From: Promethearchaeota archaeon | Lineage (GTDB): Archaea > Asgardarchaeota > Lokiarchaeia > Sigyniarchaeales > SOKP01 | Reading direction: 5' to 3' | Assembly: GCA_048940445.1 (NCBI GenBank) | Contig: JBHLON010000001.1 | Coordinates: 147,454 to 211,453 of the forward strand | DNA length: 64,000 bases | Shown here: positions 5,645 to 22,643 of the stretch, in pieces | How positions within the stretch are numbered: position 1 is the first letter of the stretch | Layout: each line of letters starts with the position of its first letter | Notes under the pieces: generated by a model | The model's input: the letters and a program-made list of their open reading frames with translations, nothing else | Told to the model about the DNA's origin: nothing | The model's database searches: none | Translations under genes and position numbers: made by a program

Positions 5645-8140
5645 ATGTACAGTAAACAAGTTCTTGAAAGAGATACTTTAAGACTAATTATAGATGAACA
5701 TAAAGATTTTACTTCTGAGGTTATTGAAGTTAAATATAATGATTTTTGGGTACCTATTCTTGGAAATCATTCTGGTTTTAGTACATTAAATTATTGGGAA
5801 AGAGGTATCCGAAAAAGTAAAAAAACATTTTTTCTAAAAAGTAAAAAGAAAAAATTATATTATCAGATTAATGATAATGATTTTTTACTAAATTTAGACT
5901 ACTGTTTTGAAGAAGATAACATATTTCATATTAGATATAAATTATCTAATAGAAAAGAATTAAATTTATCTAAACTTCTTGTAAATTATTCCGTCCTTCT
6001 TGAAGGTGAGCCAGACTTTACATGGGTTCCTCATCTTCGCCCAGAAAAGGAATATGTTATGGGGGATCATATATTTCGGTCTCCAGCGATTGTTTATAAG
6101 AAAGGCGCCATAGCTTTTGCCTTCATTCCAGATTTAAAGACTCTTGGGAATAATCGCCCTTTTCAATCATTTATAAATTTAAATCTAAAATCTGAAAATT
6201 CTGCCAATCTACCCCAAATAGATTACGGTTTTGGGAACTATCACTCAACTCCTCACACATTTTTCAAATACGACTCGTCTAAAATATGGAAAATTGAAAA
6301 GGATACCGATTTAACCTTCCGATATTATATTATTATTTTTATTAAGAAAAAGGTATCCGAAATACTACAATCTATTAATAAATTCTTCTGGCAGAAATAC
6401 CTTAGAAAATACCTATATGAAAGCTTAAAACCTCAAGTATTACCATATGAAGAAAATGTTAGAGAAGGTTTTAAAGCAATTTTTGAAAGACATAAATATT
6501 GGGGAACGTTTTGGATTAATGGAATTGAATGTGGAGGAATTTGGCAAAGATCATGGGCAGGATCTAAAAAGAGATTGATTGAATTTATAAAGCCTGAGGA
6601 TATCGAAAATCATAAACAAAGAAACACTACCGAAACTGCTAGCTCTGATGAAGGCATTCACAAAATGATAAATGAAATGATTTATGATGCAGAACAAGTG
6701 AAATGGTTTGATAAGTATAGCCTCAGACTTGCATTTGTTCCTAGAACTGCTGAAATCTGGAATAACGCGTGGTTTCTTAATATAAGGACTGCATATGGCT
6801 TGAGATACTTCGGAGAAGAATGGAAAGAAAATTCACTTATAGCAAGAGGAAATCTTATTTTAAATACAATTTTAAATTTACCGAGAATTAGTGGGCTTTT
6901 TCCGAGTATAATTTTTCCGGCAGGGCAAGATTCATCAATTGTTTCATATATAAATGGTTCTAAGGCTTATCTCTATAGTGATGAGTATAATTTAGTGGAC
7001 ATTTGCCTCGGAATGTATTGGACTCTTATTTATTACCATGAATTTGAGAAAAAAGATGAAATCATTGAAAAATGCAAAGATTTATTTAAATTTATCTCTA
7101 AAATTTGGCAAAAAACGTCTCACATTCCTGTTTTTATCAGTATTTCTAAAGATAAACAAATAGTAATTAACCATGTTTTATTAGATTCTGCTAGTTCTGG
7201 AGCCATATTACTATTCCTAACAAAATTATATAAAAGTATGAAAAGTCGAGAAATTATTGAAATAGCTAAGAAAATTGCACATTATATTCAAACAAACATA
7301 ATCCCACAAAATAAATGGCACGATTTTGAACCGTTTTATAGTTGTACTAAATTCTCTCTAAACTTCTTTGATAATTATACTAATAGCCATGTTATGAATA
7401 CATTAAGTATCTATTGGTGTGCAGAAAGCTTTAAAGAACTATATAAAATAACAAAAGAAGTAGAATATCTTGAAGGAGGAGAAGATATTTTAGCGGTACT
7501 ATCGTTATTTCAGCAGGTTTGGCCTATGCCCTACATTAACTATAACACATTCGGAGGTTTTGGAGTTCAAAATGCTGATGCTGAATTAAGTGATGCACGG
7601 CAAGCTTTATTCGTAAGAACATATATGGACTATTACCTTATAACTGAAAATGAGGAATATATGGAAAGAGGGCTTGCTGCATTACGTGCATCTTGGGCTT
7701 TACAATTGCTTAAACAATATGAAGAAATATGCCCTGGTAATATAAAGGGAATCTCCACTATTGATAATGTTGATAAAGGAGCCATCTATGAGAATTATGG
7801 TCATACAGGTAGTGATTATAGAGTTCCAGGTCAAATTACCTTTGATTGGGGGGTTGGTACTGCTGCAATGGCAACCGCCTATGTTAAAAAACATTTTGGT
7901 GATTTGTATATAGATTTTAAAAGAAAATTTGTATTTGGAATAGATGGGATTTTAATAAAGTCATTTGAATTTAATAATAGTGCAATAAAGATAATTTATG
8001 AAAAGCTGCCAGAAAAAACTCAAATTATAGTTAGAACCAGAGGCACTCCCCTTCCTGGAGTGAAATTATGCTTAAACAATGTCTCATTTGGAGTTATTAC
8101 GAACAAAATGTTAAAGTCTGGATTTAAGGTTGATATCTAG
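5645..8140 (+). CDS. large uncharacterised protein, probable (alpha/alpha)6-barrel glycoside-hydrolase-like fold
   Basis: Beta-rich N-terminus then helical repeats (LYKITKEVEYL, YYLITENEEYMERGLAAL); WHDFE, DARQ and ENYGH motifs. Confidence 0.5.
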   Translation: MYSKQVLERDTLRLIIDEHKDFTSEVIEVKYNDFWVPILGNHSGFSTLNYWERGIRKSKKTFFLKSKKKKLYYQINDNDFLLNLDYCFEEDNIFHIRYKLSNRKELNLSKLLVNYSVLLEGEPDFTWVPHLRPEKEYVMGDHIFRSPAIVYKKGAIAFAFIPDLKTLGNNRPFQSFINLNLKSENSANLPQIDYGFGNYHSTPHTFFKYDSSKIWKIEKDTDLTFRYYIIIFIKKKVSEILQSINKFFWQKYLRKYLYESLKPQVLPYEENVREGFKAIFERHKYWGTFWINGIECGGIWQRSWAGSKKRLIEFIKPEDIENHKQRNTTETASSDEGIHKMINEMIYDAEQVKWFDKYSLRLAFVPRTAEIWNNAWFLNIRTAYGLRYFGEEWKENSLIARGNLILNTILNLPRISGLFPSIIFPAGQDSSIVSYINGSKAYLYSDEYNLVDICLGMYWTLIYYHEFEKKDEIIEKCKDLFKFISKIWQKTSHIPVFISISKDKQIVINHVLLDSASSGAILLFLTKLYKSMKSREIIEIAKKIAHYIQTNIIPQNKWHDFEPFYSCTKFSLNFFDNYTNSHVMNTLSIYWCAESFKELYKITKEVEYLEGGEDILAVLSLFQQVWPMPYINYNTFGGFGVQNADAELSDARQALFVRTYMDYYLITENEEYMERGLAALRASWALQLLKQYEEICPGNIKGISTIDNVDKGAIYENYGHTGSDYRVPGQITFDWGVGTAAMATAYVKKHFGDLYIDFKRKFVFGIDGILIKSFEFNNSAIKIIYEKLPEKTQIIVRTRGTPLPGVKLCLNNVSFGVITNKMLKSGFKVDI

Positions 8141-8214
8141 CAATAATTTAAACCTTAAATTTATATGAACCAATATTAAATTATTTAATAAAATCAATTA
8201 TCTAATATGATTAA

Positions 8215-9117
8215 ATGTTAATTTATTGGTTAGGCGTTTTATTAGCAATTTTATCAGGCCTTTCACATTTCACTGGAATATTAATTGAAAAAATGATAAT
8301 CAATAAATTAAATCCTGATGCAAAATTAATGAGAAGTCTGGTAAGAACTCCATTATGGATATTTGCATTATTCCTTCGTTTTGGATTAGGAACTATTTTT
8401 TTTTTGATGGCTCAAATCTTTATTGGCCCAGCAATCATTCCAGGGTTAATGGCTTCTGGATTAATAATATTGGCAATTGGTTCAGTAAAAGTAATTGGTG
8501 AGAAATTAACATTTTCAGAAATTCTAGCTATCTTCATGATGGTTTGTGCTATTACCTTTCTTGGATTAAGTGAATTGTCAATAGAGTTATCTGAATTTAA
8601 TTTATTACAATTTGATTTCATAATTAGGATGAGTGTTTATACGCTAGCTTTGGTTATAGCTGCGGTAACATTTCATTTTATTCAATCAAAATATGGAAAA
8701 TATAGAGGAATTTTGTTAGCATTACTTTCGGGATGCATGTTCTCATTAGCAAATTTTTGGACTGGAATTTTAATGGGTGTAATCGCTAAAATATTTAGCA
8801 CAATATTTAGTCTTGGAGATATAATCCTATTTATAATCTCGGCAATAATTCTTGTTATAGTAAATTTGCTTGGAGTGGCTAAAATGGCCGCTGCGTTAAG
8901 ATATGGAGATGCAAGTAAATTAGTTCCGATACAAAACCTACCAACACAAACTACCCCTTCAATAGTATACTTTTTAGTGTTTTTATTAATTCCTCCAACT
9001 ACTTTATCTGTTGTATTTTTTATAATAGCGATTATATTAATTATAACTAGTTCATTTATATTAGCAAAGCGGCAAGCAGAGTTAGATAAGATAAAACAAA
9101 TGAATTCTGAAGAATAA
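8215..9117 (+). CDS. DMT/EamA- or NIPA-like membrane transporter
   Basis: About 9 TM helices; signature PLW...GEKLTFSEILAI. Confidence 0.65.
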   Translation: MLIYWLGVLLAILSGLSHFTGILIEKMIINKLNPDAKLMRSLVRTPLWIFALFLRFGLGTIFFLMAQIFIGPAIIPGLMASGLIILAIGSVKVIGEKLTFSEILAIFMMVCAITFLGLSELSIELSEFNLLQFDFIIRMSVYTLALVIAAVTFHFIQSKYGKYRGILLALLSGCMFSLANFWTGILMGVIAKIFSTIFSLGDIILFIISAIILVIVNLLGVAKMAAALRYGDASKLVPIQNLPTQTTPSIVYFLVFLLIPPTTLSVVFFIIAIILIITSSFILAKRQAELDKIKQMNSEE

Positions 9118-9154
9118 TAGACTTAAATATTTAATGAATTTGTTATGATATACA

Positions 9155-10765
9155 ATGGAGAAAAATAATATTATCAAAAACCTTCAAAATGAATTACCTT
9201 GGGATAAATTTTTATTAATAATGGAAAATGAAGGTTTTATAAAAACAGGTTTTCCTAATCTTTCTCAAATAGCAAATAAAAATGAATATACAAAATTATT
9301 TCTATCTGGAAAAACGATATTTGTTGACAATAAGCTCCAAGCTGCAGGTCTTAATGATCCTTCACATCTTTTTTTAACACCATATATAATTTTTAGACCT
9401 AAAACAGAGGAACAGTTAAAAAGTGTTATTATCCACTCACAAGAGTTAAAAATTCCAATAACATTTGCTGGTGGAAAAACTGGATTATCGGGAGGATATT
9501 CAAATTATGGAATAATAGTGGATCTTGCAGATCTACATACTTTTGAAAAACCTTTTTATATAGATTTTAATAAACAAGAAATACTAGTTGAACAGGGCGT
9601 AATCATCTCAGATTTAATCAAATATGTTCATTTTCTTAGTAACGGGAAGTTTATTTTTCCTATTCAACCAGCAAGTGCTTTAAAGCTTCCAGTAAGGGTG
9701 GGGGGTATTATAGCTTCAAATGCAAGTGGAATTACATCGGGAAAGTTAGGTTCGGCAGAGGATTGGATTAAAAGTATGCGAATCATGAACCCTAATGGTA
9801 AAATATTTCAATTAAAGAAAACTGATCCACTTTTCAATAAAATTATTGGTACTAATGGATACTTTGGAGTGATTTTAAGTGCTCGATTTAAATTATTTAA
9901 GCCATCCTTAGATGTAAAAAGAGCAATTCTCTTCGGAGATAATATAGAATTAGCTTTTAATGGGCTTCAATCTATTTTAGAATCTAAGATTTTTCCTCTA
10001 ATTAGTGAATTTGTAGTCTCAAATCAAAAACTACCTGGATTATTTAATAATCTGAAATTTTTAAGTAAAGTTGAATCTAAAATTAAGTGGGGAGTGATGA
10101 TTAAAGGAACTACCGCGGAGGTAGATTCCTTTATTAATTTAATGATGAGACAAGGAAATTTAGAATATTTAATTTTAAATGAAGAAGATTTTCAAAATTA
10201 TATTCAGGAAAGATCTGCTTTTGCTCTATTAGTACAAACTGCAGATTCATCTGCAGATTATATCGCATTTCCAGGGTTTGAAGATATTTTGAGCGAGCCT
10301 AAAAATTTACCAGAAATTATTCATACCATTAATGAGATTTTTGAGAAATTTGGATTTCATAAAGTAATTTTTGGATATGGTCACATTAATTTTCGTCGAG
10401 GTCAAGGACTATTATTACATATGCGTTTGCCCGTGCCTATTGAATATTTTTACAGAGAAAATAATGAGAGATTGAAATTAATATGCAAGACTGTTTACAA
10501 TGTAATAATTACACTTAAACGGAAGTATCATATTAAACATAAAGCAGAACACAGTTCAGGACCATTTAAGATTTGGTTAGATGACAATTTTAGGAAGGTT
10601 TTACGAAAAAAAATTGAAACTAAGGATGCGTTTGTTAACCCACATTTAAAAATTTATGAAGAACTTCAGAAAAGACATGGAATTACACCAGGGGAATATC
10701 TTTCAGAAGAGGAGCACAAACGACTATTCTTGGAAGCTATGAACTTATATCTCTCATTATTTTAA
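9155..10765 (+). CDS. FAD-linked oxidoreductase (GlcD/D-lactate dehydrogenase, PCMH FAD-binding)
   Basis: RPKTEEQL, GGKTGLSGG, VGGIIASNASG, GTNGYFGVI, GHIN/AEH. Confidence 0.85.
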   Translation: MEKNNIIKNLQNELPWDKFLLIMENEGFIKTGFPNLSQIANKNEYTKLFLSGKTIFVDNKLQAAGLNDPSHLFLTPYIIFRPKTEEQLKSVIIHSQELKIPITFAGGKTGLSGGYSNYGIIVDLADLHTFEKPFYIDFNKQEILVEQGVIISDLIKYVHFLSNGKFIFPIQPASALKLPVRVGGIIASNASGITSGKLGSAEDWIKSMRIMNPNGKIFQLKKTDPLFNKIIGTNGYFGVILSARFKLFKPSLDVKRAILFGDNIELAFNGLQSILESKIFPLISEFVVSNQKLPGLFNNLKFLSKVESKIKWGVMIKGTTAEVDSFINLMMRQGNLEYLILNEEDFQNYIQERSAFALLVQTADSSADYIAFPGFEDILSEPKNLPEIIHTINEIFEKFGFHKVIFGYGHINFRRGQGLLLHMRLPVPIEYFYRENNERLKLICKTVYNVIITLKRKYHIKHKAEHSSGPFKIWLDDNFRKVLRKKIETKDAFVNPHLKIYEELQKRHGITPGEYLSEEEHKRLFLEAMNLYLSLF

Positions 10766-10864: not shown

Positions 10865-12751
10865 ATGTCAAATGGTTTCTTTGGGAAGATCCTTTGGGTT
10901 GATTTAGATAATAGTTCCTTTAAAGAAGAAAAGCTCGAAGAAAATGCATATAGACAATTCTTTGGAGGATACGGTTTAGCATGTAAATTAATATATGAAC
11001 GACTTCCTCCAAAAATAGATCCTCTTTCTCCAGAGGCAATTCTGGGGTTTTTCCCCGGATTACTCACAGGTACTATAACGCCTTTAAGTGGTAGGTATAT
11101 GACAGCTGCTAAATCTCCATTAACAGGAACTTGGGGAGATGCTAATTCAGGAGGATATTTTGGTCCAGAGATAAAAAAGTGCGGATATGATGGAATATTG
11201 TTAACAGGTGCTTTTGATACTCCAAAATATATCTCAATCATAAATGAACAGAAAGAGATTTTAGATGCTAATGGTATTTGGGGGTTGGATACAGTGGAAA
11301 CTGACATAAAGTTAAAAGAGAAATATGGGAATGTGCACGTTTCATGTATTGGATTGGCTGGTGAGAAGCAATCTTTAATTTCTGGAATTGTCACTGATAA
11401 AGGAAGAATTGCTGCTAGATGTGGATTAGGAGCAGTTATGGGGGTAAAAATGTTGAAGGCTATCGTACTTAAGGGAAACAATAGAGTTCAAGTGGCAAAT
11501 AAGGATGCTTTAACCTCTATAACTCAGAAATATAATGAAGGAATTAATAATTCTGGAACAGGAACTATCACTGTTTATAAAACTTTGGGTACAAGTGGCT
11601 TAAATGATGTTAGTATTCAATCAGGCGATGCTCCCATAAAAAATTGGGGAGGTAACTTCAATGATAACTTCCAAATGGAAAAAACACGAAAAATAGGAGG
11701 TATAGAATTAAATAAGTATAAGATTAGAAAATACGGTTGCTTCTCATGTGCAGTTCAATGCGGAGGAATTGTTAAGGTTCCTGAAATCAACCTTGAGGAA
11801 AGTCATATACCCGAATATGAAACTTGTGCTTCATTAGGAGCACTTTTACTTAATGATGATAAATTATCACTATTTCAAATTAATGATTTATGTAATAGAG
11901 CGGGAATAGATACAATATCGATTGGGGGTACAATAGCCTTCGTAATTGAATGTTATGAAAATGGGATTATTGATAAAAGCCAAACCGATGGTTTAGAACT
12001 AAGCTGGGGAAATTCTAAAACAATCATTGAATTAGTTAAAAAAATTATAAAAAGACAAGGAATTGGCAATATTTTAGCCGATGGTTGTTATAGAGCCTCA
12101 AAGCATTTCGGTAAGGACAGTGAAATATATGCGATACATTCAATGGGGCAAGAATTAGCTATGCATGATCCTAAATTTTTTAAATCTCTTGGTATGAGTT
12201 ATGCTTTTGACCCAACACCTGGTAAACACACTAATCCAAGTATTGATATAATGGCTATAGGACCATTGATTAAGCCAAATGGATTGATTAATGGTCTAAG
12301 TCTACCAAAAAGATGGAAACGCGTTGGTAGTGAAGATAGAGCTACTGCTCAAAAAATAGTCGTTGGATTAAAACAAGCTACAAATGCTTTAGGATTGTGT
12401 GAATTTCTAAATCTTTACCAAGAATATCCATTAACGGAAGTAATAAGTTCAGTAGTTGGCTGGGATCTTTCTATTGAGGAAATCTTCGAAGTTGGATACC
12501 GTATTCACACTTTGCGTCAAGCATTTACAATTCGAGAGGGTATAATTATGGTAAACAACTCACTTCCAGGAAGAGCAGTTGGTGATCCTCCTTTCGAAAG
12601 TGGACCTCATAAAGGAAAAATAGTTGATTATAAAGAGGATTATCAAAACTTTTGTGAAGCAATAGGATGGAATCCCGAGAATGGGTATCCTTTAAAAGAA
12701 ACTCTAAAAGATCTAAATCTAGATTTTGTTACAAAAGATCTTTATCCATAA
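10865..12751 (+). CDS. aor: tungsten aldehyde:ferredoxin oxidoreductase family protein
   Basis: KSPLTG, SGGYFG, IGLAGE, RCGLGAVMG, CFSCAVQC, PEYET, GIDTIS. Confidence 0.93.
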   Translation: MSNGFFGKILWVDLDNSSFKEEKLEENAYRQFFGGYGLACKLIYERLPPKIDPLSPEAILGFFPGLLTGTITPLSGRYMTAAKSPLTGTWGDANSGGYFGPEIKKCGYDGILLTGAFDTPKYISIINEQKEILDANGIWGLDTVETDIKLKEKYGNVHVSCIGLAGEKQSLISGIVTDKGRIAARCGLGAVMGVKMLKAIVLKGNNRVQVANKDALTSITQKYNEGINNSGTGTITVYKTLGTSGLNDVSIQSGDAPIKNWGGNFNDNFQMEKTRKIGGIELNKYKIRKYGCFSCAVQCGGIVKVPEINLEESHIPEYETCASLGALLLNDDKLSLFQINDLCNRAGIDTISIGGTIAFVIECYENGIIDKSQTDGLELSWGNSKTIIELVKKIIKRQGIGNILADGCYRASKHFGKDSEIYAIHSMGQELAMHDPKFFKSLGMSYAFDPTPGKHTNPSIDIMAIGPLIKPNGLINGLSLPKRWKRVGSEDRATAQKIVVGLKQATNALGLCEFLNLYQEYPLTEVISSVVGWDLSIEEIFEVGYRIHTLRQAFTIREGIIMVNNSLPGRAVGDPPFESGPHKGKIVDYKEDYQNFCEAIGWNPENGYPLKETLKDLNLDFVTKDLYP

Positions 12752-14563: not shown

Positions 14564-15463
14564 TTAAAAATCTCTAAATTCAAATTCCAAAAATATTTCT
14601 TTAATTCTTTTCTTCTGATCTTTTCTTAACCAATCACTATGATTATACAATGGTTTCATTCCTAATTTATTATATTTAGAAAGATATAAAGGATTATACG
14701 GAATTAGTCCAATCTTTTTGATATTTAAGGATTTAAGATAATTTTTCCAATCAAATAAATTTTTTTCTGTAGATGTAATGCTTGGAATTAAGGGAATTCT
14801 TGGTAAAACGTCTAATTCCTCTTTATCCAATAGATATTCAAAATTATTCAATATCTTTTCATTTTTTATTTTACAATATCGAATGTGTGATTTCTGATTA
14901 AAGAGCTTTAGATCAAAGTAGATTAGATCAACATAGGGTAAAATTAAGTCATCAAATTTAGCGTTATCAAAATAACCGCATGTTTCAATACAAGTATGAA
15001 TATTATTCTCCTTTAATTTCTTTAAAAGTTTGTGTAAATAATCCATATGATAGAGTGGTTCTCCTCCAGAAAATGTTACACCCCCACCAGAATTATCATA
15101 AAATATTTTATCTCTTAAAATTATTTCGAGTAAATTCTCAATACTGTACTCCTTTCCTACATAACTTATAGCTTTACTTGGACATTTTTCTATGCATTTA
15201 CCACATAAATTGCATAATGCTCTATCTATTCGATATTTATAGGAAAAAGATATAGCACTTCGATCACATACTTCTATACATTGTTTACATTCAATACAAT
15301 CAGTACCATCAAATGAAATTTCTTGAAAAGGACTTTTAGCCTCTGGATTTTGACACCATACGCAAGCCAATGGACATCCTTTAAAGAAAATCAATGTTCT
15401 TATGCCAGGGCCATCATCTAAGGCATTTCTCTTAATGTCTACAATTAAAGTTTTCTGGGTCAT
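14564..15463 (-). CDS. glycyl-radical enzyme activating protein with two extra [4Fe-4S] motifs
   Basis: DGPGIRT, GCPLACVWCQNPE, two CxxCxxCxxxC, GGGVTFSGGEP. Confidence 0.94.
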   Translation of the reverse strand: MTQKTLIVDIKRNALDDGPGIRTLIFFKGCPLACVWCQNPEAKSPFQEISFDGTDCIECKQCIEVCDRSAISFSYKYRIDRALCNLCGKCIEKCPSKAISYVGKEYSIENLLEIILRDKIFYDNSGGGVTFSGGEPLYHMDYLHKLLKKLKENNIHTCIETCGYFDNAKFDDLILPYVDLIYFDLKLFNQKSHIRYCKIKNEKILNNFEYLLDKEELDVLPRIPLIPSITSTEKNLFDWKNYLKSLNIKKIGLIPYNPLYLSKYNKLGMKPLYNHSDWLRKDQKKRIKEIFLEFEFRDF

Positions 15464-15528
15464 TCTAATTAAAGATTAGGTATTTAAGATTAAAAATAAA
15501 ATATAATAGCTATTTATTTTACTACTCA

Positions 15529-18492
15529 TCACGACATATATTCGTGGCGCTCAATTAGTTCCAATTGCATATTTTTATTTAATTTTACGAAATAAGCATT
15601 ATAACCTGAAACCCTAACCAAGAGCCATCGGTAATCTTCAGGAGATTCCATCGCATTCCTTAGAGTATCTGAGCTTATAACATTAAACTGCCATTGCATT
15701 CCATTTAAATCGAAAAAGCTTTGAACATAACTCATGAATAGGTCTAATGTCTCTTTGTGTGAATCTCCTGGATGTGGTATTAACTTTACGTTATAAGAAG
15801 CATTGTTTGGCATTTTTAAATAGTTTAAACTTGCAACACTTTGAATGCTGGGAAGCAAAATATCTGTTGTTCCTGGAGCTGGAGTTAATCCAGGTGTCAG
15901 AGATTTCCCTTTTTTTCGACCCGATGGTAAGGCTCCTGTTAGCATTCCAAATCCCGCATGATAACTTATTGACCAGTAACCTACTAAATATTTGCCTCCT
16001 CTGTAATTATTAATAGCATGGTATGTGTCATAACAAAAATTAATCAAATCTTGAGCAAGCTCCACAGCACCATTTTGTCCAGATCCAAATTTTGGGACTT
16101 TTTCTATACTTTTAAGAATTGAGCTGTGTCCATTTTCAAAATTATGTTCAATTGCATCCATTAAAGTAACAAAATCTAATTCCTTTCTTTTATAAATTAA
16201 ATCTCTTATTACAACTAAACTATCAATTACATCTGTAAGAGCAACCAGGGCAACTCCAGAAGTATTATAAACAGCACCACCTTGTACTAGATCTTTGCCT
16301 TTATCGAGTGGACCATTAAAAAACCCTGATAATAACGGAGTGGGATGGATATATTGATGTGACGTTCCTAAAAAGTTATTTATTTCAATAGATTGTTCTG
16401 CTAAATACTTTAATTGCGTTTTGTAAGCATCATAAAAGTCTTCAAAACTTTTAAAATCATCTCGGGGATTTCCTGTAGAGGGCCCTACTTTTTCTCCAGT
16501 TAGAGGGATGATACCATCATTTAATACCATTTCTAAAGGAGCTACCAAATTTAAGAGCATACAATTCGTATGTCCATAATGCTTTCCTACGATTGTTGGT
16601 TCAACACATCCAGTAGCAGCCCAGTCTCTTGCGTCTTCTAAAATAAATCCTTCATGAACTAATGCTTCAATCATGGTTTTATCATTATGAATACTTGGTG
16701 AAGCTCCCATATTAATATTAACTTCACACAAACGTCGTAGATACTCCTTAGAATTGATACCTGGATAATATCTTGCATTCATATTTGGATCTTGAAATCC
16801 TAGCACTTCATTAGTTTTCAAAATAATAAAAGTCATATCATTCACAGCATTATTACCATTTCTATCAACTCCACCAACAGTTACAGTATCGTCGGAAGAA
16901 CTCCCACCAAATAATTTCCAACCAACATTTGGCATGAGAGGATCGTGATCATTAATTCTTATGAATAAAGATCCTATTAATTCGATGGTTCTTTTTATGA
17001 TTTTATCTTTTTCGGCTTCAGTTTTAGCTTGATTCATTTCTTTCAAAAAGAATGGTTGTAACATCTGATCAAGCCTGCCAATTGACAAAGCCGAATTTGC
17101 ATTTTCACAGTGAAGACATACAAAACTAGTCCAAATTGATTGGATTGCTTCTTGTAAAGTTTCTGCAGGTTTAGCAGGTACTTTCGCACATACTCTAGAA
17201 ATTTCTTTTAACTCTTCAATCCTTTCTGCTTGTTTAGGATTAGTAGGGTCTAAATTATTCATAATATTTAATGCTTCTTCGCTTAAATGTTTTGAATAAG
17301 TTAATACTCCATCAATTGCGATTTGTACTGCTTGATAAAAGTTTTGTTTCTCGTTATTTTCTGCTTTTTTTTCCATTTCATTGGCTTTATTTTTTACCTT
17401 CTCCAAACCATCATTAATTATCATTGGGAATCCTGGAACTGTGTGACTAATAGCATTATTTTTCATCATAAAATAAAACACCCACCCTTCTTCTAATTGT
17501 TGTGAAACAGGATTATTATATTTCGCTCGATTATATTCTCTTACATTTCTTTCCATCCAATAAGGGAAAACTTCTAAACTTAAAATATCCGCATCTTTTT
17601 CTGATATATCGTTTGGATTAAGCTCACGTTGCCCTATTGTTTTTAACTCTGGCCAAATGGCAGTACCAATAAGTTCCGGGTAAATGGGAATTCCCACTTC
17701 TTTTGAAGTAGTAGATCCAGCTATAAGATGTTTTTGATGAATTATTGGTATTTTATTGGTCATTATATGATTAACAGCTCTAGCTTGACGTAATTCAGGA
17801 TCTATAGGAATTCCTGAATTATCTATTTCAAATCCATTCTCTCTATGATATTCAGTAAGGAGTTTAGCTCGCTCAACGCAGATTGCGGGTTTTAATGCGA
17901 ATCGTCTATTTTTCAAATATTTTAAACGTGGGAAATCATCTATAGAGTATTTTGATAAGTAAGGATCATCTAGGTAATGAACGTTATCTATTTTATAATT
18001 TAGAGATTCGTTTTTAATTGTTCTGCTCTTTTTTCCCTTATCAATATCTTCAATTGGATACATTAATTGGTTTTCAGGACCTTTATAATCTTTTATTTTA
18101 GCTCCCATTACTAAAGAAATGAGGTAAGAGAATTTAGTGAGATACGACATATTTCCAATATATCCCATCTCATTAGTTAATAAGTAATCAAGTGATTCTT
18201 CAGCACTTTTATCATAAAGGTTAGCTAAAGTTTCCTTGTTCTTATAATAAATAGTAATGTTAGGATTTTCAATTTTTCCCTCATGGACTGTCATTTTCCC
18301 ATCTTTAAAAATTACATATACACTAACTTTTTCGTCTTTTGTAATGAATTGGTATTTTGCATTAAAAACAAATCCTGTCTTTTCATTATAGATTTCTCGA
18401 CGCATCTTTCTTCTAGTATCAAATATCATAGCAAGGAGATTTAATTGTTCTTTAAAATTCTCAACCTTTTGATCAATTTCTAATTCATTCAT
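15529..18492 (-). CDS. glycyl-radical enzyme (PFL2/dehydratase-like) with N-terminal SCP2-like domain
   Basis: Cys loop TGCVEP, Gly loop LVRVSGY, SIGRLDQ; the N-terminal ~130 aa resemble the SCP2 sterol-carrier fold. Confidence 0.9.
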   Translation of the reverse strand: MNELEIDQKVENFKEQLNLLAMIFDTRRKMRREIYNEKTGFVFNAKYQFITKDEKVSVYVIFKDGKMTVHEGKIENPNITIYYKNKETLANLYDKSAEESLDYLLTNEMGYIGNMSYLTKFSYLISLVMGAKIKDYKGPENQLMYPIEDIDKGKKSRTIKNESLNYKIDNVHYLDDPYLSKYSIDDFPRLKYLKNRRFALKPAICVERAKLLTEYHRENGFEIDNSGIPIDPELRQARAVNHIMTNKIPIIHQKHLIAGSTTSKEVGIPIYPELIGTAIWPELKTIGQRELNPNDISEKDADILSLEVFPYWMERNVREYNRAKYNNPVSQQLEEGWVFYFMMKNNAISHTVPGFPMIINDGLEKVKNKANEMEKKAENNEKQNFYQAVQIAIDGVLTYSKHLSEEALNIMNNLDPTNPKQAERIEELKEISRVCAKVPAKPAETLQEAIQSIWTSFVCLHCENANSALSIGRLDQMLQPFFLKEMNQAKTEAEKDKIIKRTIELIGSLFIRINDHDPLMPNVGWKLFGGSSSDDTVTVGGVDRNGNNAVNDMTFIILKTNEVLGFQDPNMNARYYPGINSKEYLRRLCEVNINMGASPSIHNDKTMIEALVHEGFILEDARDWAATGCVEPTIVGKHYGHTNCMLLNLVAPLEMVLNDGIIPLTGEKVGPSTGNPRDDFKSFEDFYDAYKTQLKYLAEQSIEINNFLGTSHQYIHPTPLLSGFFNGPLDKGKDLVQGGAVYNTSGVALVALTDVIDSLVVIRDLIYKRKELDFVTLMDAIEHNFENGHSSILKSIEKVPKFGSGQNGAVELAQDLINFCYDTYHAINNYRGGKYLVGYWSISYHAGFGMLTGALPSGRKKGKSLTPGLTPAPGTTDILLPSIQSVASLNYLKMPNNASYNVKLIPHPGDSHKETLDLFMSYVQSFFDLNGMQWQFNVISSDTLRNAMESPEDYRWLLVRVSGYNAYFVKLNKNMQLELIERHEYMS

Positions 18493-18797: not shown

Positions 18798-20240
18798 ATG
18801 GATATTAAAATTAAATTCGGAATTAGTGCCTTCTTAATAATTTTACTCCAATCTAGTTTGAAAATATTAGGAGTGATTGTTACTGGAAGTTTAAGTTTTT
18901 TATCTGAAACAGTTGATACTTTATCAGATATTGTATTTGCTTTTTTGACGATTTATTCCATTTATCTTAGTCAACGTCCACCCGACTATGAACATATGTA
19001 TGGACATTCTAAAATGGATTCAATTGGAGCGATGATCCAAGGTGCATTTCTAATAACAACATATATCTTCTTAATAATTAATGCAATAGAAGCTATAATT
19101 AACCAAGCTTTTATTGTCAACAATGCCGATTTTGGATTCCAGATTCTAATTATTTCCTTTTTAATCAACATATTCTATTCCAGAATCTTAATCTGGCAAG
19201 GAAAAAAAAGAAGAAGCTTATCACTACAAATACAGGGACTAAATTTATTTCAAGATTCTCTGAGGGCTATTATTGTTATTGTAAGTTTTATTTTGGTTTT
19301 ATTTTTCAACATTACTTATTTAGATCCATTCTTTAGCATAGCAATTTCAATATGGATAATTTTGACTGCTATTAAGCTCTTGAGAAAAGGGGTGGCAGAT
19401 CTTGCTGATGTTAATCCTGTTAGTTCTCACATTATAGAAGAATTAAGAGAAAAGATATTTAAATTAGAACATGTTAATGCTGTTGAAGATTTGAAAGTTC
19501 GTGCGAGTGGAGATAAACTTTTTATTGATGTTTGGCTTTCTGTTGAAGATCATATTTCAATAATTCATGCTAATGAAATTACTAAGGCAATAAGTTCAAT
19601 GTGTAAGTCATATTTTCCACCATATTCAGTTGAAACCATAGTAGAAATGAATCCTCTTGGGGGAGAAGTTTCTATAGGTGAGAAGATCATTAATTTACTC
19701 CATTCAATGACAAGTGAATTTCATGACATTCTCGAATTCAAAGATTTAAATGTTTTCAGTATTGAAGATGAGTATTTTCTTTCGATAACTATAGTGGTCG
19801 CCCAAGATTTGTCTCTTACAGCAGCTCATGAAATAAGTTATGATTTTGAAAAAGAGTTGAAAAGAGAAGAACCTCTTATTTCTCGTGTAATTACTCATAT
19901 TGAATCAAGTATTTTAAGTGGAAGATTATCAACGAAGCAATTAGCATGTAAAAGATTTAATCAAGAAGAATTAAAATTAATTCAGAAAAAAATTGAGATC
20001 ATTCTAAAAACTGAACCTGAAGTCAAAGGCTATCATGGATTTGAATTGTGGTCAACCACAGATTTTTGTATACTTGAGTTACACATTTTTTTTGATGGAA
20101 GGTTAAACATCTCAAAAGTTCATGAAATTATTACAAAACTAGAGGAAAAAGTTTCTAAGTCTCTTAATATTGAAGATTTAAATGAAATAATCTTTCATTC
20201 AGAACCTCTTAAAGGCCGAAAAGATGGGATAATATTTTGA
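18798..20240 (+). CDS. cation diffusion facilitator (FieF-like) with three tandem cytoplasmic dimerisation domains
   Basis: PPDYEHMYGHSK, 6 TM, then three repeats of the type LSxxxAHEI...ITHIE/IFHSEP. Confidence 0.88.
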   Translation: MDIKIKFGISAFLIILLQSSLKILGVIVTGSLSFLSETVDTLSDIVFAFLTIYSIYLSQRPPDYEHMYGHSKMDSIGAMIQGAFLITTYIFLIINAIEAIINQAFIVNNADFGFQILIISFLINIFYSRILIWQGKKRRSLSLQIQGLNLFQDSLRAIIVIVSFILVLFFNITYLDPFFSIAISIWIILTAIKLLRKGVADLADVNPVSSHIIEELREKIFKLEHVNAVEDLKVRASGDKLFIDVWLSVEDHISIIHANEITKAISSMCKSYFPPYSVETIVEMNPLGGEVSIGEKIINLLHSMTSEFHDILEFKDLNVFSIEDEYFLSITIVVAQDLSLTAAHEISYDFEKELKREEPLISRVITHIESSILSGRLSTKQLACKRFNQEELKLIQKKIEIILKTEPEVKGYHGFELWSTTDFCILELHIFFDGRLNISKVHEIITKLEEKVSKSLNIEDLNEIIFHSEPLKGRKDGIIF

Positions 20241-20243
20241 ATG

Positions 20244-21392
20244 TTAGAAATTAAACTCATACTTTTCTAATCCTAAATCATTCCTAATGTATCTTATATC
20301 CTCCTGAAGGCTTTTATTTAGTTGGATTCCAGCTTTTTTTATTTCAATTTCAGTATTATATTCCTTTTCACCAGCAGTATATATCCTCTCGATTCCAGGC
20401 TCTTTTTTAGAGGTTCTTAAAGTTCTCATAATATTACCGGTTGTTTTTTTAAAAGATTTTGATCCCAAAAAGTTTTCTATGTTTATGGCTAAAAAGAAAT
20501 GCCCCACGGGCAACCTTTTTTGGCCATTTTTATAAGTTCCAGCATTTTCTTTTAAGAAATTACCTTCTTGTAATGCTGATGAAAGAATTTCTACAAATGT
20601 CGCATACCCATATCCTTTATGGCCAGAAGTACTTTCTCCCTTTCCTCCCAAGGGTAATAAAGCTGCAGAAGCTTTATCTAAATCATGCAAAACCTCTTCT
20701 GGATTATCCTCAATTGTACCATTTTTAGTGATTATTAATCCAGAAGGAAGTGATTTATGCAACCTATTATAAACTTCAACTTTTCCTCTTTGTATAATTG
20801 AAGTAGCGCAGTCAATCAAAAAAGGAAATTCTTCATCAGTTGGAGCTCCCATGGTGAGAGGATTCGTACCTAATAGGGGTTCTACTCCAAAAGTAGGAGG
20901 GACCATTGGTCTTGTATTTGTAGTTGTAATTCCAATCATGCCCTCTTTTATAGCCATTAAGCTATAAAAACCAGCTATACCGAAGTGACTGGAGTTGCGT
21001 GTAGCAACAGCTCCCAATCCATACTTCTTAGCTTTTTTTATAGCTAGCTTCATAGATTTGTATGCAATCACAGGTCCTAATCCAAATCCCCCATCAATTA
21101 CAGCTGTAGTTTTAGTATCTTTGATAACTTTTATTTTCGTTTTCGCATTATAAATCCCTTGTTTAACCCTCTCATAGTAAGTCCTTAATCTTTGAATTCC
21201 ATGAGAATCTATACCGCGCAGATCAGAGGCAATTAACACATCAGATACTATTTTTGCATGTTGTTTGGGCGCACCTAACTTAATAAATACATCCTTGACG
21301 AACTGTTTCAATAATTTGTAATTCACATAAACTGAACCATTAAAATCTATCTTCGATTCAGGTTTAGAATTACTTCTTTCGGTCGTGTACAT
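20244..21392 (-). CDS. Ldh_2 family (type 2 malate/L-lactate/ureidoglycolate) dehydrogenase, paralog 2
   Basis: DLRGIDSHG, NSSHFG, GTNP, GHKGYG. Confidence 0.92.
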   Translation of the reverse strand: MYTTERSNSKPESKIDFNGSVYVNYKLLKQFVKDVFIKLGAPKQHAKIVSDVLIASDLRGIDSHGIQRLRTYYERVKQGIYNAKTKIKVIKDTKTTAVIDGGFGLGPVIAYKSMKLAIKKAKKYGLGAVATRNSSHFGIAGFYSLMAIKEGMIGITTTNTRPMVPPTFGVEPLLGTNPLTMGAPTDEEFPFLIDCATSIIQRGKVEVYNRLHKSLPSGLIITKNGTIEDNPEEVLHDLDKASAALLPLGGKGESTSGHKGYGYATFVEILSSALQEGNFLKENAGTYKNGQKRLPVGHFFLAINIENFLGSKSFKKTTGNIMRTLRTSKKEPGIERIYTAGEKEYNTEIEIKKAGIQLNKSLQEDIRYIRNDLGLEKYEFNF

Positions 21393-21539
21393 TAAATCAT
21401 CAGAAATTTTATGATGATATTTATTTTACTTCCTTTCTATTTAATTAAAATCCTATTTAATATAAGGTGAAAATTAGTATATAGCAAGTAAAAAACCTTA
21501 AGAATCAATGATCTTCAAAATCCTCCATTTTGAAGAAAA

Positions 21540-22643
21540 TTAAAATCGAAATTTATACTGTTTTAGACCAAGTTCTTTTTGCATGGTTTTAATATCGTTT
21601 TGTAGGCTTTGGTTTAGTGGGATTCCTGTTTTCATCCTTTCTACTTCTTTATAATATTCTTTTTCACCCGCAGTATAAATTCTTTCAGCTTTTGGATCTT
21701 TTTTAGAAATTCTGAGGGTTCTCATTATTGTACCTGCTGTCTTTTTAAAGGAATTGAGCCCCGCAAAAGATTCAATATTTATCGCTAGAAAAAAATGGCC
21801 CACTTTTAATCTCTTTTGCCCTTCTTCTTCGATTCCGAGTGTATCTCTCAAGAAGATTCCCTCTTGTAATGCAGCAGATAATAATTCCACCAAGGTTGCA
21901 TATCCATATCCCTTATATCCCGCGGTTTCTTCTCCTTTTCCACCCAAAGGTAATAATGCGGCCTTTTTATGAAGCATTCCCTCTAATACTTTATTTGGTT
22001 CGGTCATTATTTCTCCTTTATCATCTATTACAGTATTTTGTGGCAATGATTTATTCACTCTCGCATAAACCTCAACTTTTCCACGTTGTATTATTGAAGT
22101 AGCACAATCTATCAAAAAGGGAAAATCTTCATCACTGGGAGCCCCTAATGTTAAGGGATTAGTACCTAACATTGGTTCTACTCCAAATGTGGGTGGAATT
22201 GATGGCCTTGCATTAGTTGTTGCTAAGCCTATCATCCCTTCTTTGATGGCCATTAAACTATAGTATCCAGCGATTCCAAAATGACTAGAATTTTTTACAG
22301 CAACAGCACCTAGACCATATTTTTTAGCCTTAGAAATTGCTTTACTCATTGCTTTATAAGCGATTACATGACCCATTCCATTATTCCCATCCCATAACGC
22401 AGTGGTTGGTCCATCCTTGATTACATCTATTTTTGTATTTACCTCATATATTCCTTGCTTTATTCTATCATAGTACATTTTACATCTTTGAATGCCATGA
22501 GATTCAATTCCACGTAAGTCAGAAGTAATTAAGACTTCTGCGATTATTGTAGCATCCTCTTTAGGAACACCAAGCCCAATAAAAACATCCCTCATAAAAT
22601 TTTCAAGAGTTTTAGCATCAAGGTATATAATTTCTTCAGTCAT
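21540..22643 (-). CDS. Ldh_2 family dehydrogenase, paralog 1
   Basis: DLRGIESHG, NSSHFG, GTNP, GYKGYG. Confidence 0.92.
   Translation of the reverse strand: MTEEIIYLDAKTLENFMRDVFIGLGVPKEDATIIAEVLITSDLRGIESHGIQRCKMYYDRIKQGIYEVNTKIDVIKDGPTTALWDGNNGMGHVIAYKAMSKAISKAKKYGLGAVAVKNSSHFGIAGYYSLMAIKEGMIGLATTNARPSIPPTFGVEPMLGTNPLTLGAPSDEDFPFLIDCATSIIQRGKVEVYARVNKSLPQNTVIDDKGEIMTEPNKVLEGMLHKKAALLPLGGKGEETAGYKGYGYATLVELLSAALQEGIFLRDTLGIEEEGQKRLKVGHFFLAINIESFAGLNSFKKTAGTIMRTLRISKKDPKAERIYTAGEKEYYKEVERMKTGIPLNQSLQNDIKTMQKELGLKQYKFRF

Follow-up and report, generated by a model that had tools for sequence, protein, structure and literature searches.

An SCP2-fold domain attached to a glycyl radical enzyme of Asgard archaea and bacteria suggests anaerobic chemistry on lipophilic substrates

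Why would a glycyl radical enzyme (GRE) carry an additional domain in front of its catalytic core, and what could such a domain tell us about the substrate? The question is raised by a gene of an Asgard archaeon, located in a stretch of 64,000 nucleotides of the Promethearchaeota archaeon contig JBHLON010000001.1, which was analyzed as a whole and is called the window here. The gene (15529..18492, minus strand) encodes in a single open frame a protein of 987 amino acids (aa), which a first-pass annotation made from the sequence alone had described as an uncharacterized CVE-type GRE fused to an SCP2-like lipid carrier domain. The N-terminal sequence quoted in that annotation was found in the open reading frame (ORF), and both signature loops are intact: the Cys loop TGCVEP (16597..16614), with the predicted catalytic residues C629 and E631 (CXE motif), and the Gly loop RVSGY (residues 960 to 964; 15601..15615), with the radical site G963. 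The core matched PF02901 (PFL-like, 516 bits, residues 190 to 849) and PF01228 (Gly_radical, 78.7 bits, residues 866 to 969). Since it starts at about residue 189, the protein has some 188 extra N-terminal residues and is, as had been noted, longer than a PFL2-type core. Because the front part of this extension appears to be a genuine SCP2-type domain, the enzyme probably serves for the anaerobic removal of a polar head from a greasy molecule.

The identity of the N-terminal domain (residues 1 to 130; 18103..18492) is hardly visible at the sequence level. The Pfam SCP2 model (PF02036) matched the GRE of the window with an E value of 0.04 and 14.7 bits, below the gathering threshold of 21.3 bits, although it matched 28 of 35 family members at an E value of 1 or less (best, 6.9e-5) and reached 21.5 bits in a paralogue (locus L111). 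A profile of the domain gave no meaningful match to PDB sequences (best E value, 0.85), and the domain was thus identified solely by fold search. Precomputed annotations of the family proteins list just the two GRE domains, which means that the databases miss the SCP2 part. We therefore modeled residues 1 to 190 with AlphaFold2 on an alignment of 35 sequences (A2). The mean pLDDT of ten-residue blocks was 73 to 93 over residues 1 to 130 and 84 to 93 over residues 1 to 90; it fell to about 50 in the linker (residues 131 to 188; 17929..18102), the last 25 or so residues of which (L164...DFPRL) are conserved in the family alignment and run into the GRE core. Foldseek returned 27 PDB matches at an E value of 1e-3 or less, with a TM score to the target of 0.49 to 0.72, and every one was an SCP2 protein or domain, including UbiJ-SCP2 (8.8e-6), Archaeoglobus fulgidus AF1534, the C-terminal domains of alkylsulfatases, and the SCP2-like domain of MFE-2. 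Similarly, nine SCP2 chains ranked at the top of an independent comparison with VIA-align, with Z scores of 9.3 to 11.5 over 106 to 115 aligned residues and a tenth SCP2 chain at 7.0, while the best non-SCP2 entries, acetyltransferases of the Eis/GNAT type, did not exceed 5.7. The model and the two structural comparisons, together with the subthreshold Pfam match, bear out the earlier proposal that the N terminus follows the SCP2 pattern; the fold-level result is unambiguous, with residues 1 to 130 superposing on solved structures of the SCP2 fold (a five-stranded sheet flanked by helices).

SCP2 domains of this fold are known as parts or partners of enzymes with hydrophobic substrates. Those at the C terminus of the alkylsulfatases SdsA1 and Pisa1 (2cfu and 4axh), in MFE-2 (1ikt), and in UbiJ (6h6p) were matched with Foldseek E values of 9e-6 to 7e-4, and by analogy the module of the GRE would present a greasy substrate to the core. 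The analogy has its limits, since the partner enzymes belong to other classes, the identity is 12 to 19%, and the GRE module is either N-terminal or a separate subunit.

This separate form was found by searching the N-domain profile against 1.84 billion representatives. The 326 proteins retrieved include more divergent fusions of about 1000 aa and many stand-alone proteins of 120 to 260 aa without a Pfam match, a family homologous to the N-domain of the GRE (hhalign, 99.9%; E value, 4e-34). In two Desulfobacterales genomes (L133 and L134), such a stand-alone gene directly follows an unfused GRE of 828 to 834 aa; the order in L134 is GRE (6536-9022), SCP2-like gene (9036-9479), and activase (9476-10369), and in L133 the SCP2-like gene likewise follows the GRE. 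In a FastTree phylogeny, the GREs of the split form were sister to all fused ones (SH-like support, 99), and the fused forms made up one clade (SH-like support, 100). That stand-alone SCP2 genes follow unfused GREs that are sister to the fused ones argues that the module is a functional partner of the enzyme. The module also occurs outside the GRE family. A 1009-aa molybdopterin oxidoreductase of a Desulfobacterales genome (L112:3090-6119, plus strand; G004, contig C117) has an N-terminal SCP2-like module (A2 profile E value, 2.5e-8) as well as an AhtL-like first domain, Molybdopterin, and Molydop_binding, with a Fer4_11 subunit gene after it and BKACE and cyclase genes before it. Judged from these matches, the module serves a second class of anaerobic enzymes as well. 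In another Desulfobacterales genome (G020; L135:9179-9643, plus strand), a stand-alone SCP2-like gene has no GRE within 9 kb and is surrounded by two related 376-aa genes (the one scanned is URO-D-like), a long acyl-CoA dehydrogenase, and a short-chain dehydrogenase/reductase (SDR).

Which reaction could the core (residues 189 to 987; 15529..17928) catalyze? Besides the ten-stranded PFL-like barrel and the RVxG glycyl radical domain, it possesses the catalytic Cys, the CXE motif, the catalytic His, and a dedicated activase. The latter, a radical SAM enzyme of 299 aa (14564..15463), is encoded downstream of the GRE in the same orientation, after a gap of 65 nucleotides. With TIGR02494 it reaches 293.8 bits (cutoff, 174); it has a CX3CX2C motif at C30 and, as stated in the first-pass annotation, two auxiliary ferredoxin motifs (CX2CX2CX3C at C56 and C84). 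In HMMER alignments to solved GREs, from which all active-site positions were taken, C629, E631, and H350 (17443..17445) correspond to C433, E435, and H164 of glycerol dehydratase (1r8w), and H350 corresponds also to His160 of HypD. Glu435 of glycerol dehydratase takes the proton of the C1 hydroxyl, whereas His164 donates one to the leaving hydroxyl, and all characterized GRE eliminases and isomerases keep the CXE motif (PMC13450708). C629-V-E631 is invariant among 61 family members, and H350 and an acidic pair, D534-D535 (16888..16893), are invariant in the family as well. Against PDB sequences, the core scored 391 bits with the A. fulgidus enzyme AfPFL2, 312 to 348 bits with eliminases, 198 with MasD, 167 with TutD, and 93 with pyruvate formate-lyase, and on these scores it appears nearer to the eliminases than to MasD, TutD, or pyruvate formate-lyase. 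The latter identity was rejected, as the loop reads G628-C629 with no Cys-Cys pair and TIGR01255 gave 117.6 bits against a cutoff of 994.

Within the eliminases, the protein fits none of the characterized enzymes. TIGR01774 gave 523.6 bits, under its cutoff of 678.2, and the equivalog models for CutC, HypD, HpfG/HpsG, and PflD gave 364 to 412 bits (HypD, 412; CutC, 403; PflD, 385) against cutoffs of 1000 to 1109. At the active site, H281, S282, Y339-Q340, D447, and Y640 of glycerol dehydratase are replaced by S467, A468, D534-D535, N643, and W840, respectively. The specificity residues S282, D447, Y339 (F in propanediol dehydratase), and Y640 (V in propanediol dehydratase) are therefore absent, and those of CutC and HypD are not shared either, in agreement with the claim that the enzyme is an uncharacterized member of the CVE type. 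The pocket is instead polar and acidic (D534, D535, N643, S467, and H845). Thirty-one of the 35 positions examined were identical in all sequences of this orthologous group (family 1) that cover them, Asgard and bacterial alike, and the other four show only conservative changes in a few sequences. This invariance argues for one conserved substrate head group.

Three groups of solved GREs are instructive for comparison. PFL2/PflD of A. fulgidus (2f3o), the best match among solved structures (E value, 1e-115; query residues 201 to 982), likewise belongs to the PFL-like GREs of archaea and has CXE in its Cys loop; it differs in having 776 aa and no SCP2 domain, N-Q in place of D534-D535, D in place of N643, and Q in place of S467. 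Its function is debated between glycerol dehydratase and (1-methylalkyl)succinate synthase (MASS) (PMC13450708). The B12-independent glycerol and propanediol dehydratases (1r8w/1r9d and 5i2a/5i2g) have the Cys/Glu/His triad in common with our protein and follow the same logic, namely, a carbonyl product for a neighboring aldehyde enzyme, but they lack an extra N-terminal domain and differ in the specificity residues. Finally, YbiW and PflD of Escherichia coli (8id7, 8id0, and 8yjo), which are 1,5-anhydrohexitol-6-phosphate-cleaving isomerases with a CXE motif (252 to 324 bits), cleave an ether C-O bond beside the radical carbinol carbon, and this ring ether cleavage proceeds by an eliminase or glycerol dehydratase type of route (PMC13450708). 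They provide a mechanistic precedent for lipid ether cleavage, although their substrates are sugar phosphates and they have no carrier domain.

Taken together, we consider it fairly probable that the SCP2-GRE is an enzyme of the radical 1,2-eliminase or isomerase type whose SCP2 module holds a lipophilic molecule while the core acts on its polar head, the product being a carbonyl compound and most likely an aldehyde. In such a reaction, the activase would install the radical on G963, from which it would move to C629. With the lipophilic tail held by the SCP2 module, the C629 thiyl radical would take a hydrogen from a polar-head carbon that bears a hydroxyl, E631 would deprotonate this hydroxyl, and a group bound to the adjacent carbon through C-O (or, less likely, C-N) would depart with the aid of H350 as the proposed proton donor. 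The aldehyde could then be oxidized to the acid by aldehyde:ferredoxin oxidoreductase (AOR), and in the bacterial loci the acid could become a coenzyme A (CoA) ester and enter enoyl-CoA hydratase (ECH) and acyl-CoA dehydrogenase (ACAD) steps. Among the candidate substrates are alkyl- or acylglycerols, glycerol ethers of the archaeol type, vicinal diols with a long chain, and amino-alcohol lipids. The glycerol ethers appeal in view of what YbiW and PflD do and since an alkoxy-aldehyde could be processed by the neighboring enzymes, but no result singles them out. The more specific proposal of an anaerobic ether-lipid lyase, acting on archaeol or an alkylglycerol, is one that we regard as unlikely at present. 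Such a lyase would take hydrogen from the free carbinol carbon and expel the neighboring alkoxide by the ketyl-radical route known from the ring ether cleavage of YbiW/PflD. This would yield an alcohol, fatty or isoprenoid, together with an alkoxy-aldehyde, the latter to be processed by AOR, an acyl-CoA ligase, and a crotonase-type enzyme.

The genomic context was studied in 71 loci of the SCP2-GRE family, and neighbors were counted within 8 kb of the GRE in the 53 loci with usable flanks (36 Asgard and 17 bacterial). An activase was present in 28/36 Asgard and 6/17 bacterial loci. The most widespread partner beyond it was AOR, with 20/36 and 5/17 (25/53 overall), and two more truncated bacterial loci (L060 and L068) contain it as well. 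Often the AOR gene is the next one after the activase, in the same orientation, and the linkage spans Asgard, Desulfobacterales, Syntrophomonadaceae, Spirochaetales, and "Bacteriovoracaceae" loci. ECH was found in 3 of the 36 Asgard and 9 of the 17 bacterial loci, AMP-dependent acyl-CoA synthetase in 3 and 2, and long ACAD and TetR regulators in 3 bacterial loci each and in none of the Asgard ones. In addition, the operons of the paralogues contain, in this order, TetR, GRE, activase, an NAD epimerase/3beta-HSD-type dehydrogenase, and an SDR, the last two being carbonyl/alcohol enzymes too. The common theme of the neighborhoods is thus an enzyme for the carbonyl product, joined in bacteria by downstream steps of the fatty acid type. 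The earlier suggestion of a hydrophobic or lipid-linked substrate fits this AOR and beta-oxidation context. The reactive pocket itself is polar (two invariant Asp, Asn, Ser, and His) and not hydrophobic.

Several observations weigh against the proposed eliminase. A shared SCP2 fold is no proof of function, and lipid binding by the modeled module is something that we infer. The same applies to the leaving group and the product, since the polar and acidic pocket matches no characterized enzyme. In the full-length AlphaFold2 model, the pLDDT drops below 50 precisely at the active-site loops, so that the model was set aside as a guide to the docking of the SCP2 domain and to the pocket lining. Moreover, AOR is near the GRE at only about half of the loci. 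In the window itself, the AOR gene (10865..12751, plus strand; AFOR_N and AFOR_C) is convergent with the GRE gene on the opposite strand and is not cotranscribed. Lastly, many Asgard loci are closely related, so that their synteny is not independent evidence.

Three other explanations were weighed. The polar pocket would suit an ordinary small-substrate dehydratase or lyase whose SCP2 domain plays a structural, regulatory, oligomerizing, or membrane-tethering role instead of carrying the substrate, and N-terminal extensions do serve other purposes in other GREs, such as the 1150-aa CutC 9f3w. We nevertheless hold this to be unlikely: the module has stayed with the GRE clade, fused or adjacent, over deep divergence; it is also fused to a molybdopterin oxidoreductase; and the precedents for enzyme-attached SCP2 domains (alkylsulfatase, MFE-2, and UbiJ) all concern hydrophobic substrates. 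Furthermore, the bacterial neighbors are beta-oxidation genes, and the archaeon's own genome (93% completeness) contains no microcompartment (BMC) shell gene, for which reason a microcompartment-targeting role of the extension was discarded. A second possibility takes the lipid partner literally as a CoA ester. SCP2 proteins bind acyl-CoAs, ECH adjoins the GRE at 12 loci and lies between activase and GRE in the operons of L032 and L052, and a long ACAD gene is directly upstream of the GRE at L036, L043, L054, and L071. The module might therefore bind a long-chain (hydroxy)acyl-CoA, with the GRE dehydrating or eliminating on the acyl chain in concert with ECH and ACAD. However, no characterized GRE eliminase is known to use a CoA ester, the scheme has no need for AOR, which acts on aldehydes and acids, and most Asgard loci, that of the window included, have neither ECH nor ACAD nearby. 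Neither a hydroxyacyl-CoA dehydrogenase nor a thiolase is conserved in the loci. We judge such a pathway to be distinctly unlikely.

The remaining explanation, that the SCP2-GRE resembles alkyl- or benzylsuccinate synthase and adds an SCP2-carried long-chain hydrocarbon to fumarate, has some precedent in the literature. Related Asgard GREs (homologues in Hermodarchaeota) have been annotated as Ass/Bss on the basis of 29 to 33% identity and a single Cys (PMC8163825), although their membership in the 987-aa family is not confirmed. Besides, AfPFL2, the best PDB match, has been proposed as a MASS, and a family member lies beside beta-oxidation genes in Desulfatibacillum alkenivorans, which degrades hydrocarbons. 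The X-succinate synthases are also GREs for hydrophobic substrates and depend on accessory subunits at the substrate channel, but these subunits are FeS or rubredoxin-like and not SCP2. Benzylsuccinate synthase (BSS; R508) and MASS (R492) hold fumarate with an Arg 15 residues past the catalytic Cys (PMC12358834). In our protein, none of the 20 residues that follow C629 is an Arg, and the residue at Cys+15 is C644, as counted in the sequence and not by alignment to 9o8u/4pkc. The eliminase Glu of the CXE motif and the His are invariant, the pocket is polar, MasD and TutD score far below the eliminase-type GREs, and fumarate addition would leave AOR without a role. Finally, the gaps flanking the window genes contain no Cys-rich small ORFs, and no conserved cluster of small subunits of at least 80 aa emerged across the 71 loci. 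A fumarate-adding enzyme is thus very improbable, and the radical eliminase acting on a lipid head group remains our preferred reading.

How widespread is this enzyme? The same N-domain is present in more than 150 protein clusters with a length of about 987 aa. The Asgard loci come from metagenome-assembled genomes (MAGs) labeled Promethearchaeota (Lokiarchaeota lineage), Hod-, Thor-, Odin-, Hermod-, Jord-, and Freyarchaeota, and the bacterial ones from Desulfobacterales (including the cultured D. alkenivorans DSM 16219), Desulfosudaceae, Syntrophomonadaceae, Spirochaetales, and "Bacteriovoracaceae". The closest relatives of the window GRE are from Hodarchaeota/Promethearchaeota MAGs (85% identity), which fits the Asgard origin of the window. 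The domain was detected in 13 of 151 sampled genomes of this phylum. These genomes belong to 2 of the 27 families, and within the archaeon's own genus the domain occurs in 6 of 12 further genomes; the gene is therefore accessory and patchy. The genome itself has one GRE with the SCP2 module and at least three without it (C84:87986-89929, C134:87341-88846, and C132:31-1527).

With unfused GREs as the outgroup, the bacterial paralogues and the bacterial sequences of family 1 diverged first in the FastTree phylogeny, and all 42 Asgard sequences formed one clade (SH-like support, 97) beside a Desulfobacterales group. This topology suggests a single transfer from Desulfobacterota-like bacteria to Asgard archaea. 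The enzyme, which had been framed as one of an Asgard archaeon, is hence no Asgard specialty; its orthologous group sits within a larger, mainly bacterial clade of SCP2-associated GREs. Asgard and bacterial sequences share 52% identity in the SCP2 part and 67% in the core; faster divergence of the SCP2 part is what one would expect of a fixed head-group chemistry combined with looser binding of the tail. Desulfatibacillum and Desulfosudaceae genomes have two or three fused paralogues each, 44 to 48% identical to family 1 (best BLAST match), which retain H350, D534, CVE, and the FWSSH segment but have Q at D535 and G at A468. In these genomes (G001 to G004), we also counted 9 to 13 PFL-like matches each, most of them uncharacterized. 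Among them is a Desulfatibacillum pair with a GCVY Cys loop (L086/L090), which had been considered as an alkylsuccinate synthase contrast and was not used because its best PDB match is glycerol dehydratase (450 bits; MasD, 382).

Further genes in the neighborhoods are worth recording. At 15 or, by another count, 19 Asgard loci, though not in the window, a divergent pair upstream of the SCP2-GRE encodes a CrtI/carotenoid isomerase-like flavoenzyme and a PaaE-like reductase (for example, L037:6952-9749, minus strand, with a CrtI-like FAD enzyme of 522 aa and a PaaE/BenC-like FAD-NAD-2Fe2S reductase of 409 aa), which hints that the substrate or product in Asgard archaea may be of the isoprenoid type. 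Near the bacterial SCP2-GRE, L054 (13042-13671, plus strand), L030, L036, and L042 share a conserved polytopic membrane protein of 209 aa without a Pfam or NCBIfam match, the gene of which directly follows the GRE at L054 and L030. A 187-aa protein without an NCBIfam match is encoded between activase and AOR at L033 (3552-4115, plus strand) and four other Asgard loci; by eye, it seems to have a winged-helix and a Roadblock/LC7-like domain and may be a local regulator. The window also contains two tandem Ldh_2-family genes (20244-22643, minus strand), the one scanned against NCBIfam being closest to sulfolactate/malate dehydrogenase, and a CDF transporter with three ZT_dimer stretches (18798-20240). 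Both are syntenic with the GRE at about 15 Asgard loci, which may reflect close relatedness only. The FAD_binding_4 neighbor (9155-10765) was rejected as an alkyl-DHAP synthase, its best matches being lactate, glycolate, and 2-hydroxyglutarate dehydrogenases, and the variable bacterial neighbors examined offered no substrate clue.

In the literature searched, we found nothing linking SCP2 with a GRE and nothing on the SCP2-GRE family. A 2026 review of GREs mentions no SCP2-type domain and names as an open gap that no PFL-like GRE from archaea is characterized (PMC13450708). New are the split form with its place as sister group in the tree, the families of paralogues, the active-site signature and its invariance, the examination of alkylsuccinate synthase membership, the bacterial beta-oxidation context, and the nested Asgard clade. 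As the known accessory subunits of GREs are FeS or rubredoxin-like, a lipid-carrier partner of the SCP2 type, whether fused to the enzyme or encoded apart from it, would add a new kind of accessory module and bring lipophilic substrates, probably derived from membranes, within the reach of GRE chemistry. The published assignment of Asgard GRE homologues to Ass/Bss, which underlies claims that Asgard archaea degrade hydrocarbons, would be corrected as well. The presence of the family in the cultured D. alkenivorans DSM 16219 makes the hypothesis directly testable. If the ether-lipid lyase version were true, this would be the first enzyme for the oxygen-free breakdown of membrane ether lipids and, in Asgard archaea, would point to the catabolism of archaeal lipid necromass.

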